64,000 nt of DNA. Origin: Mobula birostris (lineage: Eukaryota). Shown here in pieces: positions 1-56,069 of the stretch. Position numbers and translations under genes: made by a program. The DNA is taken from assembly GCF_030028105.1 (NCBI RefSeq), contig NC_092380.1:63051717-63115716 (forward strand), in the 5' to 3' direction. The notes beneath the pieces were generated by a model, which saw only the letters and a program-made list of their open reading frames with translations, made no database searches and had not been told where the DNA came from. The stretch's first letter is position 1. Each line of letters begins with the position of its first letter.

Positions 1-1045
1 ACAGACAGTGTGATGTTTGCTTCCAGAATTTGCTGGTATTTAATTGAATTCATTCTTCCCTCTACCAGTGAAATGTTCCTCTTGCCACTGGCTGCAACAC
101 AAGCCCAAAGCATGATCGATCCACCCCTATGCTTAACAGTTGGAGAGGTGTTCTTTCCATGAAATTCTGCCCCTTTTTTCTCCAAACATACGCTCATTGC
201 GGCCAAAAAGTTCTATTTTAACTTCATCAGTCCACAGGACTTGTTTCCAAAATGCATCAGTCTTGTTTAGATGTTCCTTTGCAAATTTCTGACGCCGAAT
301 TTTGTGGTGAGGATGCAGGAAAGGCTTTCTTCTGACGACTCTTCCATGAAGGTCATATTTGTGCAGGTGTCGCTGCACGGTAGAACAGTGCACCACCATT
401 CCAGAGTCTGCTAAATCTTCCTGAAGGTCTTTTGCAGTTAAACGGGGGTTTTGATTTGCCTTTCTAGCAATCCTACAAGCAGTTCTCTCAGAAAGTTTTC
501 CTGGTCTTCCAGACCTCAGCTTGACCTCCACCATTCCTGTTAACTGCCATTTCTTAATTACATTACGAACTGAGAAACAGCTATCTGAAACTGCTTTGCT
601 ATCTGCTTATAGCCTTCTCCTGCTTTGTGGGCATCATTTATTTTAATTTTCAGGGTGCTAGGCAGCTGCTTAGAGGAACCCATGGCTGCTGATTGTTGGG
701 ACAAGGTTTGAGGAGTCAGGGTATTTATAAAGCTTTGAAATTTGCATCACCTGGCCTTTCCTAACGATGATTGTGAATAAGCCATACCCCTAACAAGCTA
801 ATTAAGGTCTGAGACCTTGGTAAAAGTTATCTGAGAGCTCAAATCTCACTTTTTCATGGTGCTCCTTTCCTTTTTTTCACTCTAAAATTGTACAAAACAA
901 AAATAATACACTAACCTTGCTTAAAATGTTGAAAAGAATGTTTCATCTTTAACTTCATGACTTTAGGAGATCAGTTCATAGTCTACTCAACTATTCACAG
1001 TAACAGAAATTTTGACCGGGGTGCCCAAACTTTTGCATGCCACTG
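1..1045 (-). mobile_element. Tc1/mariner DNA transposon (left part runs off the window), frameshifted transposase
   Basis: Minus-strand ORF 133..534 has Tc1 motifs (RSGRPGKLS, NPRLTAKDL, VLWTDEVKIELFG). Probable start ATG at 683 with a frameshift near 575. TIR end ...AAACTTTTGCATGCCACTG at 1045 is followed by TA. Confidence 0.93.
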
Positions 1046-10306: not shown

Positions 10307-12709
10307 CCTTGGTACTAGAAAGTTTGTGAACCCTGTAGAATTTTCTCTTATTTCTGGATAAATAATACCTAAAATGTGATCAGATCTTCACACAAGTCCT
10401 AAAACTAGATAAGGAGAACCCAATTAAATAAATAACACAAAAAACATAATACTTGTTCATTTATGTATTGAGAAAATAATCCAATATTACATGTATTTGT
10501 TGGAAAAAGTATGTGAACCTTTGCTTTCAGTAACTGGTGTGACCCCCTTGTATAGCAATAACTTCAGCCAAACATTTCTGTTAACTGCTGATCAGTCCTG
10601 CACATTGGCTTGGAGGAATTTTAGGCCATTCCTCCTTACAAAAGTACTTCATCACTGGAATGTTGGTGGGATTCCTTGCATGAACTGCTTGCTTCAGGTC
10701 CTTCCAGAACATTTCTATAGGATTTTTCTTAGAAAAATAGAGGGTTATGGGTAACCCTAGGTAATTTCTAAGGTAAGTACATGTTCAACACAGCATGGTG
10801 GGCCAAAGGGCCTGTACTATGCTGTAGGTTTTCTATGTTTCTATGACTAAGGACTTTGACTTCGCCATTCCAAAACATGAATTTTCTTCTTTTTAAACCA
10901 TTCTGTTGTTGATTTACTCTTGTCTTTCAGTTCATTGGCTTGATGCATTATCCAACTTCTATTAAGCTTCAGGTGGTGGATTGCTACCCTAACATTCTCC
11001 TGTAAAATGTCTTGATACAATTTTGAATTCATTGTTCCCTCAACTATTGCAAGCTGTCCAGGCCCTGAGGCAGCAAAACAGGCCCAAACTATGATGCTCC
11101 TTCCAACATACTTCACAGTTGGGATGAGGTTTTCGTGTGGGTGTGCAGTGCCCTTTTTCCTACAAACATAGCAATGTGCAGTTTTGCCAAAAAAATCAAC
11201 TTTTATCTTTCCACAGAACATTGTCCCAGAAGCACTGTAGAACATCCAGGTGGTCTTTTGCAAACTGGAAACGAGCAGCAATGTGTTTTTGGAGAGCAGT
11301 GGTTTCCTCCATGGTGTCTTTCTATGAACACCATTCTTGTTCAGTATTTTTCTTATAGTGGCCACATGAACGGAGACTTTAGTAAGTTCTAAAGATTTCT
11401 GCAGGTCTTTTGTTGTTACCCTTGGGTTCTTTTTCACCTCCTTCGGCATTGCATGTTGTGCTCTTGGTGTGATGTTTGCAGGACACCCACTCCTAGGGGG
11501 AGTAGCAACAGTACTGAGTTTTCTCCATTTGTAGACAATTACTGTGGACAGAAGAACACTCAGATCTTTAGAAATGCTTTTGTAGCCTTTTACAGCTTCA
11601 TGCATCTCTACAATTCTTCTAAAATCCTCTGAAAGTTGATCAAGGCATGGTGCATATAAACAGATCTTTCTTGAGAAGAACAGGCTCTGTCAGTTACACA
11701 ACTTTGTGTGTCTTTTTTACAGGGCAGGGCACCTCTACAACCCACACCTTCAATCTCATCTCATTGATTGGAACACCTGACTCCAAATAGCTTTTGTAGA
11801 AGGCATTATCCCAGAGGTTCACAAACTTTTTCCAATACATGTAATATTTAGTAATGTTTCTCAATAAATAAATAAACAAGTATAACTTTTTTGCATTATT
11901 ATTTAATTGGGTTTTCTTTATCTAGTTTTAGATTTAGATTTAGATTATGAGGACACACAGTCCTCTTTTATTGTCATTTAGTAATGCATGCATTAAGAAA
12001 TGATACAATTTGTCCCTCCAGAATGATATCACAGAAACACAAGACAAACCAAGACTAAAAAAACTGACAAAAACCATATAATTATAACATATAGTTACAA
12101 CAGTGCAAAGCAATACCATAATTTGATGAAGAACAGACCATGGGCACGTAAAAAAAAGTCTCAAAGTCTCTTGTAAGTCCCATCATCTCACGCAGATGGT
12201 TGATGGGAGAAACTCTCCCTGCCATGAGCTTCCAGCGCTGCAAACTTGCCGATGCAGCATCCTGGAAGCACCCCGAACACAGTCCAACTCTGAGTCCGTC
12301 CGAAAACTTCGAGCCTCCGACCAGCCCTCCGACACCGAGCACCGAGCACCATCTCTGCCAAGCGCTTCGACCCTGGCCCTGCCAACAGGCAACAGGCAAA
12401 GCCGAGGATCTGGGGCCTTTCCCTCCAGAGATTCTCGATCACACAGTAGCAGCAGCAGTGAAGCAGGCATTTCAGAAGTTCTCCAGGTGTTCCTCCGTGC
12501 TTCTTCACATCTGTCTCCATCAAATCAGGATTGTGCATGGCATCCTACTTCACAAATGCGATATCATTCGGAGCGGCCGCGCGCGCTGCGTCACGCCGCC
12601 ATCTTCTCCTCCCCTTAGAACTTACATGAAGATCAGATTATATTTTAGGACATATTTATGCAGAAATAGAGAAAATTCTGTATGGTTCACAAGCTCTCTA
12701 ATGCCACTG
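10307..12709 (-). mobile_element. Tc1 transposon with long TIRs and a disrupted transposase
   Basis: TA at 10305-06 and 12710-11. TIRs (GGTACTAGAAAGTTTGTGAACC / GGTTCACAAGCTCTCTAATGCCACTG). ORF 10847..11605 has PTVKYVGRSIIVWACF and LEWRSQSP; the NPIE half of the SPDLNPIE motif resumes near 10724 after a ~120-bp CR1 3' insert. Confidence 0.92.
11930..12614 (-). mobile_element. CpG-rich non-autonomous retroposon inserted in the Tc1 TIR
   Basis: Minus strand begins GGGGAGGAGAAGATGGCGGCG and ends GACAATAAAAG...(TCTAAA)n. It interrupts the right TIR, as seen by comparison with the intact left TIR, with a short TTAGA duplication. Confidence 0.75.
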
Positions 12710-16874: not shown

Positions 16875-18697
16875 GAATTAATATTAAACTTAAACGTGGC
16901 GCTGGTTTTTCTCTCTAAGAGATAACATTATTTTGGTTCTTTCTTGTTTATCAGTCGATGGAATGTAAATACATTTTTTTCCTGAGACTTTATTGTCTTT
17001 TTCACAAGGTCACTCTACTTTTTTACTAACTGGGGGGAGGGAAAGAAAACACAGACAGACCAGTCAGCAGCTTTGAATTCTATCGTAGATCGCTTGCCTT
17101 TTTCGGGTTTCCGGGTGTGGGTGGGTGGGTTTAGAGTTAGTTTTTCCCCATTGGGTGGTTCCGGAGCATGCGTGTTTTTTGTTTGGTTGTATTCTTCATC
17201 ACCGCCATCTTTGATCATCCTGGATTGGTCTGTGCTTTGTGCATGTATAAAGTAGAATGAAATTATAGTATGCTGTTCAAATGGATAAATATAATAAGTT
17301 GGAATGTGCGTGGTTGGAATCATCCTATTAAACGAAAGAAGACTTTTAAAATTATTAACCGATTCCAACCTGATATAATTTTTGCTCAAGAGACACATAT
17401 CAGGGCGGGAGATCAAAATGGGTTTTTTAGATGGTGGAATGGTTTGCAATTCCACTCTACTTCTCAGGGTAAAACAAAAGATGTCTATTTTCATTAAACC
17501 TAATATATTTATTCAAGAAGATATTGAATCAGATTCTAATGGTAGATTTTTAATTGTTAAAGGAACAATCTGTAGAAAAGTTGTTTTGGTTAATTTGTAT
17601 GGTCCTAACTTAGATGATCCTTCTTTTTGTTAAAAAAGTATTTGCTTTACTGCCTGACTTAAATGAATATATGCTCATAATGGGTGGAGATTTTAATTGT
17701 TGTTTAAATCCTATGATTGATAAGAGCTCAACCAATCAGCGACTTCCAAATCGATCCGCGTCATTTATTAATTCCTTTTTGATTGATTTTGGGTTGATTG
17801 ATTTGTGGAGGTATCTTCATCCCGACAATAGAGAATATTCTTTCTTCTCACACGTTTATAAAAAATATTCAAAAATCGATTATATTATAATCGATCGCCG
17901 CTTCTTGCCTAGTGTTAAAACCTGCGAATATGACGCTATTGCTATATCTGATCATGCACCTCTGAGTTTGTCTTTTGAATTTGATGATATCACTCTTGCC
18001 CGCCCACCTTGGTGCATGTCTCAGACATTATTGCAAAACTCTGACTTTGTCACTTTCATTGAAACCCAGATAAAAGAACTTTTTCTTTTTAATGATACAG
18101 GGGGTATGTCTAAATTAGTTATATGGGATACATTTAAAGCATTTTTATGCGGTCAGATTATTTCTTATTCAGCTAAACTTAAAAAACAAACTAAAGCAGA
18201 ATTAGATAGAATTTCAAAACAAATTAAAGATTTAGATAATATTTATGCAATTTCCCCCAATACTGATTTATTTAAACAAAGGGTGGAACTTCAATCACAA
18301 TATAACCTGTTATTAACTCATCCCATTGAAGGTTATTTGCTTAAGTTAAAGAGCCAATTTTATATGTCTGGAGATAAAAATAATAAACTGCTTGCATCTC
18401 AATTAAAAATGGCTGCAGCCAAAAGGCAAATCATGAAAATTCATAGGAAAGATGGTACCTTAGCTCAGGAATATGAGGAAATTAATAAGATTTTTCAAGA
18501 CTTTAATGCTGAGCTATATAAATCTCAATGTCCATTAGATTCCTCTAAAATGAATGCTTTTTTATGAAAGATTGTTTTTCCTAAAATCTCGGCTGAGGAT
18601 CAAAAAATTCTCGATGCTCAAATTACTGAAGCCGAAATAAAGCTATTTCTTCAATGCAATCTGGTAAGTCCCCAGGACTTGATGGCTATCCCGTAGA
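16875..18697 (+). mobile_element. L1-clade LINE internal fragment (APE endonuclease half of ORF2)
   Basis: ORFs 17270, 17382 and 17614: IISWNVRG, DIIFAQETH, LVNLYGPN, MGGDFN, YSKIDY, ISDHAPL, WDTFKAFLCGQII, then GKSPGLDGYP just before the break. Confidence 0.92.
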
Positions 18698-40789: not shown

Positions 40790-40920
40790 TTAATTTTTGT
40801 CTTCAAAGAGATAGTCGAGGGCAGGCTGCCCTGCTCGATGTTCCATATTACGATTTTTGGTAAATTCTTTCAGCAAAGTCATTACTTCATTATCAAATTC
40901 TGGAGGAGTCGGCTTGGTTT
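40790..40920 (-). CDS. SDHAF2: SDHAF2 exon 4 ([43 protein letters not shown])
   Basis: AACAG acceptor; 131 nt to the TAA; matches the SDHAF2/Sdh5 C-terminus. Confidence 0.95.
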
Positions 40921-41857: not shown

Positions 41858-41967
41858 CTGTTATCCAGTAGTAAATATCCCAATCATTGGTTGGCTGATT
41901 GATCAGTTTATCATACAAACTTAGCTGCTTCTCAGTCATTTCATTCAGGTACTTTTTTGCAAAGAAA
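41858..41967 (-). CDS. SDHAF2: SDHAF2 exon 3 ([36 protein letters not shown])
   Basis: TTTCAG acceptor and GTTTGT donor, 110 nt; NDWDIYYW motif. Confidence 0.96.
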
Positions 41968-41988
41968 CTGAAATGTAAAATAATAAAT

Positions 41989-42024
41989 TTCCAATTTTAG
42001 TATATGTGCTGCCGAAGCGAGCAC
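41989..42024 (-). pseudogene. RNU6: 3'-truncated U6 snRNA retrocopy (U6 nt 1-36)
   Basis: GTGCTCGCTTCGGCAGCACATATACTAAAATTGGAA is the U6 5' end; 10-bp TSD (AATAAATTTC on +) at 41982-41991 and 42025-42034. Confidence 0.93.
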
Positions 42025-43057
42025 AATAAATTTCATTCTACATATAAACCTTTGGTGTTCAGTTTTAAAACACATTTCAACACTGGATGAGATTGTTAGC
42101 AACTGAGTTAAACTAACTGTAAAGTGCCAAATGTTTCTGACACCAATCAGATTAACATCTTCCCTAATAAGTAAAAGGTAGTAAAAATAGGATTCCTTGC
42201 AATTATCTGTATTTTCATTATTTTTTTCTTTTTCCAGTAGCATGAAATCATTTTTTGTTTAGTACTTACAAAATAATTCATGAATTCTTGGGTAACTGTT
42301 TTTATGTTAATATCAATTTATGTAGAACTTTATATTTCAAGCAATGAAGTTGTTCTATCACATAAATAGCTCTAAATGGTAAGTTATAGTAATCCAATTT
42401 ACACAACAGATTCATCTAGGGTTTAGTCTACTCCACAATGATGCTTCTAGTTGTAAATTTGTACTACAAATCTTTATTTTTGTTAACTGAATACAAAAAT
42501 ACAGGGGAAAATACATTGTACTTAAGGCAGTAGTACCAATAGAAAGTACTTTCAGGTGAATTCAAATGTAGAAATAAACAGACTCTGCAGTTTCTCAAAT
42601 GACACTCAGGTCAGAACAAGATGTGGAATGCAGTAAAATCCTGGGAATCTGCTATCAAACTATTAAGAATTCTTGATGGTTTGGCATCTGACTCACCAGG
42701 TAATACTTGCTGTACTACCTATCTGCTCACTGGACCTCAGTTCTAACACTCTTTTTTCACCTGCTGAGGCTCCAATTCTTACCTTTTCATATCTGGAAAA
42801 CTAATCATTCGGTGTAACATTTAAACACCGAATTAAAAGAGGAATGAGGTATTAAAATGAGTAACATCCACTAGTCCAAAATACCTGCTAGTCCTGCCAC
42901 ACCAAAGTTTAGAGCTTGCCAGATTTTTTTGAATGTTAGTTTATCAACTAACAAGACAGAATGGTACCAGGAAAAGAAACACAATTAGAGAACAATACCT
43001 TATCAAATCGTAACTCAATAGGGTTTATCTATCTTCAAATTTAAGGGCCACTTTTAC

Positions 43058-43275
43058 CTCAGTAAGATGCAATTCTCTAACATTCCACGCTTACGGCTCT
43101 CGTATAGCAGACGTGCTCGCTTTGTGTCCAGTGGCTCATTTGTTCGCTCTTCCCATGGAGGCAGTGGTATTTGTATGATATCTGTTAAATGATCATCAGT
43201 ATCACCATGATATGCTCTGATAGGGGAAGCACCAAGTATGGCCTGTGCAGCTCTTTGTCTGGTCAGGCACCAAAC
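43058..43275 (-). CDS. SDHAF2: SDHAF2 exon 2 (VWCLTRQR...[38 protein letters not shown])
   Basis: TATAG acceptor and GTAAAA donor, 218 nt; contains the Sdh5 signature [12 protein letters not shown]. Confidence 0.97.
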
Positions 43276-43335
43276 CTATAGAAAACAAGATGGAAAGTAT
43301 TTTAGCCTATACATATTTAATTACACTTTTAAATA

Positions 43336-49027: not shown

Positions 49028-49045
49028 ATTGCGCACAATCGACAT
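49028..49045 (-). CDS. SDHAF2: SDHAF2 exon 1 (MSIVRN)
   Basis: AAGATG start with an upstream in-frame TAA; GTGAGT donor, phase 0 as exon 2 requires. Total CDS 18+218+110+131 = 477 nt, or 158 aa. Confidence 0.8.
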
Positions 49046-49280: not shown

Positions 49281-49334
49281 ATGGCCGAGGGAGCTGACTT
49301 AATCGATATTTACGCGGATGAAGAGTTTAATCAG
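49281..49334 (+). CDS. CPSF7: CPSF7 (CFIm59) first coding exon (MAEGADLIDIYADEEFNQ)
   Basis: 54 nt with a CAG|GTGGGT donor. DLIDIYADEEFNQ is CPSF7-type (CPSF6 has DHIDIYADVGEEFNQ). Adjacent to SDHAF2. The next exon was not found in the window. Confidence 0.92.
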
Positions 49335-53934: not shown

Positions 53935-54095
53935 TGCCTGGTGGTGGAGGGGAACTACTTGGTTCTTCTACTGAGAAAGAAGTGGAGAGCTTTAAGGCAA
54001 ACAACAGGAATTCTGCAGATGCTGGAAATTCAAGCAACTCACATCAAAGTTGCTGGTGAACGCAGCAGGCCAGGCAGCATCTCCAGGAAGAGGTG

Positions 54096-54132
54096 CAGTC
54101 GACGTTTCAGGCCGAGACCTTTCGTCAGGACT
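54096..54132 (-). ncRNA. Minimal type I hammerhead ribozyme motif (left arm)
   Basis: Minus strand: AGTC-CTGACGA-AAGGTCTCGGCCT-GAAA-C-GTC-GACT; stem II weakened by one substitution. Confidence 0.65.
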
Positions 54133-54768
54133 AACTGAAGGAAGAGTGAGTAAGAGATTTGAAAGTTGGAGGGGGAGGGGGAGATCCAAAATGATCCAAA
54201 AAGACAGGAGGAGGAGGGATGGAGCCAAGAGCTGGACAGGTGATTGGCAAAAGGGATACGAGAGGATCATGGGACAGGAGGTCCGGGAAGAAAGACGGGG
54301 GGGGGGGGAACCCAGAGGATGGGCAAGGGGTATATTCAGAGGGAGAAAAAGGAGAGTGAGAGAAAGAACGTGTGTATAAAAGTAAGTAACAGATGGGGTA
54401 CGAGGGGGAGGTGGGGCATTAGCGGAAGTTAGAGAAGTCGATGTTCATGTTCGACTTCTCTAACTTCTGCTAATGCCCCACCTCCCCCTCGTACCCCATC
54501 TGTTACTTACTTTTATACACACGTTCTTTCTCTCACTCTCCTTTTTCTCCCTCTGTCCCTCTGAATATACCCCTTGCCCATCCTCTGGGTTCCACACCCC
54601 CCCCCGTCTTTCTTCCTGGACCTCCTGTCCCATGATCCTCTCGTATCCCTTTTGCCAATCACCTGTCCAGCTGTTGGCTCCATCCCTCCCCCTCCTGTCT
54701 TCTCCTATCATTTTTGATCTCCCCCTCCCCCTCCAACTTTCAAATCTCTTACTCACTCTTCCTTCAGT

Positions 54769-54806
54769 TAGTCCTGACGAAGGGTCTCGGCCTGAAACGT
54801 CGACTG
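54769..54806 (+). ncRNA. Minimal type I hammerhead ribozyme motif (right arm), intact core
   Basis: Stem I AGTC(54770-73)/GACT(54802-05); CTGACGA at 54774-80; stem II AGG...CCT; GAAA at 54794-97; palindromic ACGT helix III; GTC cleavage triplet ending at 54801. Confidence 0.78.
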
Positions 54807-56069
54807 CACCTCTTCCTAGAGATGCTGCCTGGCCTGCTGCGTTCACTAGCAACTTTGATGTGTGAGCTTTAAGGCATCCTTGATGGAAGATAGAAGTGTA
54901 TAGGGACTGAACATCTATGGTGAAAATGAAGCAGTCAGGTCTAGGGAATTGAAAGTTAATGAGATTTGGGCGCATGAGAAGTGTATAAATATAAGATGAA
55001 GAGTCCTTGAAAGTGAGGCCATATGTTGTGGGAGCAGTTTCATGATGGGCAAGTGAAGTTGTCCCCTCTTTTTCAAGAGCCTATTGATTGAGGAAGTAAT
55101 AACTAACTGTTCTGAACTTGGTGGTGTGAGTCCTGAGGCAGTATACCTTCTTCCTGATGGCAGCAGCAAGAAGAGAACATGACCTGGATGGTGATGGTCC
55201 TTTATGATGGATGCTGTGCTTTCCTGCAATAGCACTCCTGTAGATGTGCTCAATGGTGGGGAGGGCTTTACCTGTGATGGACTGGGATGTATCCCCTACT
55301 TTTTTGTAGGCTTTTCCATATAAGGGCATTGGTGTTTCCATGCTGGGCCATCATACAACCAGTTGATATACGCTCCACAACATCTATAGAAGTTTGTCAA
55401 AGTTTTAGATGGCATGCTGATCGTCGCAAATTTCTTTGAAAGTAAAGGCCCCTTCTGTATTGGTTTTCAAAATAACGCTGTTGGATCTTTTATGTCTGTG
55501 TGGATCAGCAGACAAGGGATCATTGAGCACTTCATAAGTAAGACAACTCTGTCGCACTGCTTGGGTGATGCATTTGCATGTGAGCATGGGCTGGTCTTTG
55601 TAACAGATGAATTAATTTACAAAAATGTTGAGCGTGTGTCACACTTAATTTTCCAAGTGCAAGTGTCATTTTTTTTATTTTAGTAAAGGTATTTTCATTC
55701 TGATGTGTATTCTAGGTTGACAGAGGATGGAAATTCACAAGTTTTCTTCTTGAACAGCAATTAATTTTTAATTTTGGTTATACTTATTTGACCATGGCTT
55801 CTTTAAAAGGGATGAGCTAGATTAAAAACTTATACACCCCTCCCCAGGTACGCACTGATATAATTACAATGAATTTACAGCACAGGAAAAAGCCTTTTGC
55901 TTCAGTTTGTCAGTACTTACATTTTAAACAAACTTCTTCCAACCCTATTTCATCCAAAGTTATCATTATCACCCTTGTTTACAAATTTAACTTCCTTTAG
56001 TGCACTCTGCGTCTTAAGATTCTGAAACACACTTGGTTTCACCTGTTCATCATAAACTAAATTAGAAGG

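Follow-up and report, generated by a model that had tools for sequence, protein, structure and literature searches.

The branch zone of intron 2 of SDHAF2 in Mobula birostris contains a tailless copy of the first 36 nucleotides of U6 snRNA, which was put into this intact gene by target-primed reverse transcription. The copy lies in the same orientation as the gene, and its TACTAAA motif presents a candidate branch adenosine (position 41997, equivalent to U6 A28) 30 nt upstream of exon 3. As we see it, the chances are evenly balanced that the following account holds as a whole: an L1-type insertion displaced the ancestral branch sites and brought a U6-derived main branch point with it, and was tolerated by replacement. 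All positions below are those of the window, i.e., the whole stretch of 64,000 nucleotides that was analyzed; SDHAF2 is encoded on its minus strand, and distances with a minus sign are counted upstream from exon 3 unless another acceptor is named. The features are collected in Table 1.

Table 1. Features of SDHAF2 and of the U6 insertion in intron 2, in the order of transcription.
Feature	Position	Strand	Basis or remark
SDHAF2 exon 1, coding part	49028..49045	-	GT-AG and open frame; matches the N-terminus of P0002
SDHAF2 exon 2	43058..43275	-	5′ splice site of intron 2 at 43057
Displaced ancestral branch candidates, 42045 (-35 to -78) and 42033 (-23 to -66)	42032..42048	-	inferred from the reconstructed empty allele
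Target-site duplication, upstream copy	42025..42034	-	10 bp
U6 snRNA nt 1-36, 5′-complete, 3′-truncated, tailless	41989..42024	-	Rfam U6 match from model position 1
U6 5′ stem-loop, nt 1-19	42006..42024	-	predicted; -9.5 kcal/mol alone, kept in context
U6-borne CAG (-44..-42), cryptic acceptor, in the hairpin stem	42009..42011	-	predicted
U6-derived branch candidate TACTAAA, adenosine 41997 (U6 A28) at -30	41996..42002	-	U2 match; prediction
Target-site duplication, downstream copy	41982..41991	-	first 3 nt are U6 nt 34-36, priming microhomology
Retained ancestral branch candidate TTTAT, adenosine 41984 at -17, in the downstream duplication copy	41983..41987	-	reconstructed empty allele
Intron 2 polypyrimidine tract and CAG acceptor	41968..41987	-	acceptor yields intact frame
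SDHAF2 exon 3	41858..41967	-	Pfam Sdh5; 36/37 residues as in Hypanus sabinus
SDHAF2 exon 4, coding part	40790..40920	-	GT-AG and open frame

The U6 piece aligns with positions 1-34 of the 105 positions of the Rfam U6 model (E 0.0011, 22.4 bits), and, being a fragment, falls short of the Rfam gathering score of 44. The 36-mer recurs without any change in 61 papers, and it is identical to nt 1-36 of the human U6 sequence printed in PMC10045129. The match ends at nt 36, as the next base is C in that human reference and A in the window. A sequence-only reading of this DNA had proposed a perfect match to U6 nt 1-36 in the sense of SDHAF2, the lack of a poly(A) tail, and a 10-bp target-site duplication that overlaps the U6 3′ end by 3 nt, and each of these points is borne out. 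No A-tail follows the piece, and the duplication comes directly after it. The repeat GAAATTTATT is found at 42034-42025 and at 41991-41982, the two copies are identical, and the second begins 3 nt within the U6 end. A repeat of at least 10 bp so placed occurred in 18 of 200000 simulations under one null and in 51 of 200000 under another. The U6 match stops 21 nt upstream of exon 3, and the net insertion is 43 nt; the earlier placement of the U6 end at about 21 nt before exon 3 and of A41997 at -30 agrees with all coordinates.

Several other identities were considered for the piece and rejected. It is not a functional U6 gene, as it covers only model positions 1-34 of 105 and has no catalytic core. 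An interrupted full-length U6 copy is rejected, as the window holds no further U6 piece: downstream pieces were not found beyond chance (three matches at three mismatches, with a chance mean of 1.43). A SINE head or a U6-LINE chimera is rejected as well, given that the duplication begins within the last U6 bases and this part of the intron occurs only once in the window. An RsaD match at the same place (E 0.25) is attributed to chance in A/U-rich sequence. At the gathering score, Rfam models matched nothing anywhere in the 64-kb window, and no tRNA genes were detected in it. At E <=1 no other snRNA, 5S or tRNA fragment was found across the whole window, by a scan that also missed the known U6 piece and is therefore insensitive to short copies. 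With no mismatch over 46 sites, a divergence of up to about 6% is compatible, and perfect identity as such fits up to 6-8%, so it is uninformative on selection; the insert may be of recent origin or polymorphic.

The reading frame of SDHAF2 is uninterrupted over four exons, all with GT-AG boundaries, and encodes 158 amino acids. Among named proteins, the one from the stingray Hypanus sabinus is closest (152/158 residues identical; 93% in exon 2), and the identity is 138/158 to Narcine and 127-132/158 to sharks. Comparison with these relatives gave no sign of decay in the coding sequence. We gauged 3′ splice-site strength by pyrimidine fraction, with the two other SDHAF2 introns as the only comparison; for the intron 2 acceptor the fraction is 0.76 over -20..-4. 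That the frame is conserved suggests a functional normal acceptor (41968) with the insert present. The acceptor region of intron 1 (43276-43310, minus strand) has a CTAAA candidate at -27 from its own acceptor, with an AG at -33 just upstream.

We rebuilt the empty allele in silico by deleting U6 nt 1-33 together with one copy of the repeat. Within the AG-exclusion zone, a rule taken from Corvelo 2010, the candidates of the empty allele with U at -2 of the motif are at -35, -23, -17, and -14, and all are weak. In the filled allele, where the U6 AG sets the zone, U at -2 occurs only at -30, -17, and -14. The left edge of the duplication cuts the motif of the -23 candidate, so its proximal copy is without U at -2. 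The sequence-only reading had the ancestral branch region shifted by about 43 nt. This is correct for the -23 and -35 candidates and incorrect for the -17 candidate, which lies inside the duplication and is at the same distance from the acceptor in both alleles.

Pairing was counted against what we take to be the U2 motif. By this count A41997 has five of six pairs and is the only adenosine with five from -10 to -100. Its hexamer occurs 29 times in 128000 nt, or about 0.005 times per 22-nt zone. The context includes U at -2, A at 0, and a pyrimidine at -3, with A, not a pyrimidine, at +1, so that it departs from the full yUnAy; of human adenine branch points in catalogues, only 35.8% have that form (PMC9636908). 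The adenosine lies inside the 19-37 nt range that includes 90% of human branch points (median 25; PMC4315302), and the next AG upstream is at -43. Between A41997 and the pyrimidine tract there are 10 purine-rich nucleotides, whereas the -17 site abuts the tract. Folding with four context sizes predicted an unpaired probability of 0.77-0.78 for TACTAAA.

Every position of both alleles was scored with the frequency table of Gao 2008 (181 human clones) and a distance prior fitted to three quantiles of PMC4315302. Eight settings were used, combining two backgrounds (one of them assumed), two motif widths, and two priors. The model is human-derived and small and ignores structure, so its weights are a ranking rather than a measurement. 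A41997 is the top candidate in 8/8 settings, with 0.36-0.53 of the weight. The U6-only positions together account for 0.54-0.74, the retained positions (-24..-13) for 0.24-0.44, and the displaced sites for 0.01-0.03. In the empty allele, the sites that were later displaced have 0.58-0.84 of the weight and the -17 site has 0.06-0.35. The total weight is about unchanged by the insertion (filled/empty ratio 0.91-1.20). In intron 1 the model puts the CTAAA at -27 first, and this pentamer is also that of the U6-derived candidate. The earlier suggestion that U6 may supply the branch point holds as a prediction, with the best U2 match and the top model weight behind it, and is weakened by the -17 site, which has the higher score (4.2-4.3 vs 3.3-3.9 bits at -30) when a flat background is used and sequence is the only input. 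That A41997 or a neighboring U6-derived base acts as the main branch point has, in our estimate, a probability of about one half; that SDHAF2 splicing now depends on the U6-derived site is less probable.

The -17 site is central to the alternative that survives best, although we consider it rather unlikely. According to this, the U6 copy is a neutral passenger that is little used, and branching occurs, as before the insertion, at the retained adenosine 41984 or at several weak sites near the tract. The duplication kept the distance of this site, its sequence is a full yUnAy fit, and the score noted above is the highest on sequence alone; yet it falls outside the 19-37 nt range of PMC4315302, has only a minor share of the empty-allele weight, and pairs more weakly with U2 than A41997 does. 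Literature data bear on both sites. U-rich branch motifs accompany low-GC introns and multiple branch points occur in 32.4% of human exons (PMC4315302), and downstream branch points were preferred in 8/14 introns (Gao 2008), the first and the last of which fit branching at -17. On the other hand, the predicted accessibility of the -17 site is 0.43-0.45 after the insertion vs 0.87 before it. Against the U6-derived site, branch-point usage tracked accessibility more than U2 pairing in one study (PMC7969005); in its favor, SF1 is reported to favor branch sites that come right after a stem-loop (cited in Gao 2008).

Folding also predicted an 11-bp stem (41972-42042, minus strand) in which the upstream flank pairs with the pyrimidine tract. 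It forms in both alleles, with the insert in the loop of the filled one, and the helix flanks the insertion point. This stem could allow an ancestral site (42033, 42045, or the CTGAA at 42059) to branch still, if the insert folds out at the stem tip, shortening the effective distance and hiding the AGs. We regard such distal use as improbable. Stems of this type are documented in yeast introns (PMC12350175), PMC9636908 mentions stems that bring distal human branch points near, and 42059 has the second-best U2 energy. However, the stem of the empty site is borderline when compared with shuffled sequences (249/5000), and it pairs the tract that is needed by U2AF and buries adenosine 42033 (unpaired probability 0.08-0.10). 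The low weight of the displaced sites also argues against their use, with the caveat that the weighting model ignores structure. The predicted cost of opening the tract and AG is 8.0 kcal/mol in the filled and 9.1 in the empty allele, vs 2.7 and 5.0 at the other two SDHAF2 acceptors.

The U6 piece carries a CAG of its own. The sequence-only reading overlooked this CAG and the hairpin that contains it, as it did the retained -17 site. The CAG is 25 nt downstream of the displaced adenosine 42033, which is canonical spacing, and 65% of the tract of this cryptic acceptor is pyrimidine, the same fraction as in intron 3. Translation of the predicted product shows that exon 3 would be extended by 41 nt, with a frameshift and a stop 87 nt before the last junction. 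It is conceivable that 42033 and the U6 CAG act as a second acceptor unit, giving a longer, frameshifted, decay-targeted mRNA in some transcripts, with a slightly harmful or a regulatory effect. This would be compatible with a U6-derived main branch point, not exclusive of it, and we assign it a low probability. The U6 hairpin takes in the CAG, with an unpaired probability of 0.01 in four context sizes, and most of its tract; the predicted cost of opening the cryptic acceptor unit is 12.95 kcal/mol vs 9.77 for the U6-branch unit; and the SDHAF2 coding sequence is without decay.

Regarding the origin of the insert, its identification as a textbook tailless, internally primed U6 retropseudogene is well supported, which confirms what had been proposed from the letters of the sequence. 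Tailless snRNA retropseudogenes have been defined by a 5′ end within 5 nt, a length of at least 30 nt, a 3′ truncation of at least 10 nt, no oligo(A), and no attached repeat (PMC5322556). The class is further described as having a duplication of 8-35 nt, microhomology between the RNA break and the target, a break in single-stranded purine-rich RNA, and a TT/WAAAAWW target (PMC4476161, PMC5322556, PMC2912911). The SDHAF2 copy starts at U6 nt 1, is 36 nt long, is truncated by at least 10 nt, and has both the 10-bp duplication and the microhomology. The break is located after the 5′ hairpin in a single-stranded purine run, with nt 20-36 predicted to be unpaired. The insertion target agrees with TT/WAAAAWW at 6/9 positions, which is compatible and not diagnostic; similarly deviant target sites occur in the table of Doucet 2015 (PMC4476161). 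The length is also common among human copies. In Table S2 of Noll 2015 (PMC5322556), with coordinates assumed to be inclusive, up to 5 nt possibly missing at the 5′ end, and a few rows resembling segmental duplicates, 15/144 tailless U6 copies are 36 nt long. This is the second commonest length after 30 nt, the cut-off (26/144); 28/144 copies are 33-37 nt and 96/144 are 41 nt or shorter.

The surveys in PMC4476161 and PMC5322556, in their available text, include mammals, birds, anole, and Xenopus, and no cartilaginous fish. Outside mammals, the same text reports tailless copies only in anole (25), with none in birds, platypus, or Xenopus. The element itself is of a known class and comes from a lineage that the two surveys lack; with it, tailless U6 retrocopies, which mark relaxed L1 activity, are extended to the cartilaginous fish.

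We infer that L1 was the responsible enzyme and that the ancestral branch sites were displaced. The window includes a broken L1 ORF2 piece at 17614-18567 (plus strand; E 3.6e-30 to human ORF2p 124-423), covering the C-terminal half of the endonuclease and the linker. As judged from this piece, it shows that an L1 clade is present in this genome, not thereby that it was active at the time of insertion. A different origin (capture of a U6 cDNA at a double-strand break, another LINE clade, joining of U6 and intron by the spliceosome, or an assembly artefact) is very improbable: the target departs from the consensus at 3/9 positions, a reverse transcriptase remnant foreign to the L1 piece and other LINE-like ORFs occur in the window, and other LINE clades produce U6 chimeras in lizard and platypus (PMC4476161), but the 10-bp duplication, the 3′ microhomology, and the hotspot length are the signature of target-primed reverse transcription, stringent L2 elements in platypus gave no 3′-truncated copies in the available text of PMC4476161, and neither insert junction is a splice site or a branch site.

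In the preferred account, a presumably L1-type reverse transcriptase would have made a nick in A/T-rich sequence of the intron 2 branch zone, and priming would have occurred on U6 nt 34-36 via a match of 2-3 bp. Copying of U6 back to its 5′ end would have left the 10-bp duplication. The 43-nt insertion would then have pushed the two weak ancestral branch candidates out of range. The U6 5′ hairpin probably hides its own AG, and the single-stranded TACTAAA behind the hairpin would provide a strong U2 match at -30, before the unchanged pyrimidine tract. Based on sequence and folding, the main branch point would be chiefly A41997, perhaps shared with the retained -17 site. The gene may have stayed spliceable because the U6 fragment brought a complete cassette with it, which would amount to tolerance by replacement; nothing indicates positive selection.

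A broader proposal, which is tentative and in our view somewhat doubtful, is that the 5′ third of U6 is a self-contained branch cassette that replaced the branch point of a constitutive exon in SDHAF2, a conserved mitochondrial gene, made splicing dependent on this genomic copy of part of the catalytic RNA of the spliceosome, and is a recurrent source of such sites in vertebrates. If this is true, sense copies would be a recurrent and overlooked source of branch points or new exons, since tailless U6 breaks are mostly at nt 30-41, just behind the motif. Sense tailless U6 copies of at least 29 nt all carry the motif; thus the fit is built into U6, and only the landing place is luck.

Branch points supplied by transposons are already known from Alu. 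Tailless snRNA retropseudogenes (PMC4476161, PMC5322556, PMC2912911) have the same anatomy as the copy reported here, including the 36-nt length, but here the host is a batoid ray, and the available text of that literature reports no splicing role. Exonized inverted Alus have 154 mapped branch points, with CUAAU in 48% of left-arm cases (Mercer 2015, PMC4315302). These are likewise retroposed RNA copies with a strong U2 motif beside a pyrimidine tract. However, the Alu branch points are mapped, antisense, and serve new Alu exons, whereas the one in SDHAF2 is predicted, is in a sense snRNA piece, and would serve an ancient constitutive exon with the tract and AG of the host. Other repeats also donate all or part of a branch motif (Kralovicova 2021, PMC7969005; DBASS cases, PMC7951965), but in engineered minigenes or disease pseudoexons and from MIR, LINE, LTR, and Alu elements, not from spliceosomal RNA; the branch points of the transposon-derived pseudoexons in PMC7951965 are predicted.

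Hairpins near the 3′ end of yeast introns similarly occlude an AG, i.e., a cryptic 3′ splice site (PMC12350175). [quoted passage not shown] SINEU and U6-L1 chimeras (PMC4494074, PMC11838501) are also snRNA sequences spread by LINE machinery, but the ray copy is without a LINE or SINE body and the duplication begins inside its end. In titles and abstract openings, with few subscription papers covered, we found no report of an snRNA copy serving as the branch point of an old coding exon, or of tailless copies in cartilaginous fish. The available text of PMC4494074, PMC11838501, and PMC11727581 mentions neither sharks or rays nor a branch-point role for snRNA. If the predicted use is true, the insertion survived where an intron is most vulnerable, since it replaced the signal that it displaced, and an snRNA sequence has become a splicing element in cis. 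With and without the insert, the two alleles are a clean minigene pair for how branch-point choice is affected by the U2 match, by distance, by a hairpin upstream, and by an AG that is buried.

When examining the rest of the window we noted a first coding exon at 49281-49334 (plus strand), with 18 codons followed by GT. It and SDHAF2 are arranged head to head, with about 235 bp up to the SDHAF2 start at 49045, and the interval is likely a bidirectional promoter. The exon is presumably from a CPSF6/CPSF7-like gene, and a motif scan up to 64000 found no further exons of it. Downstream of this exon is a near-perfect palindrome (54040-54862), with arms of 266 nt (96%), 105 nt (99%), and 48 nt, a center near 54446, and a 9-nt spacer. 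It is apparently a head-to-head inverted duplication of a repeat. The Rfam search of the window at E <=1 gave 16 matches, all of them to microRNA models on the palindrome near 54446. If transcribed, the palindrome would form a double-stranded RNA of about 400 bp. Among other mobile elements, a different LINE-like fragment follows the L1 piece from about 18700, a Tc1/mariner transposase remnant at 133-606 (minus strand) was judged by eye, and another at 10847-11689 (minus strand) has matches to Pfam HTH_Tnp_Tc3_2 and the Sleeping Beauty HTH.
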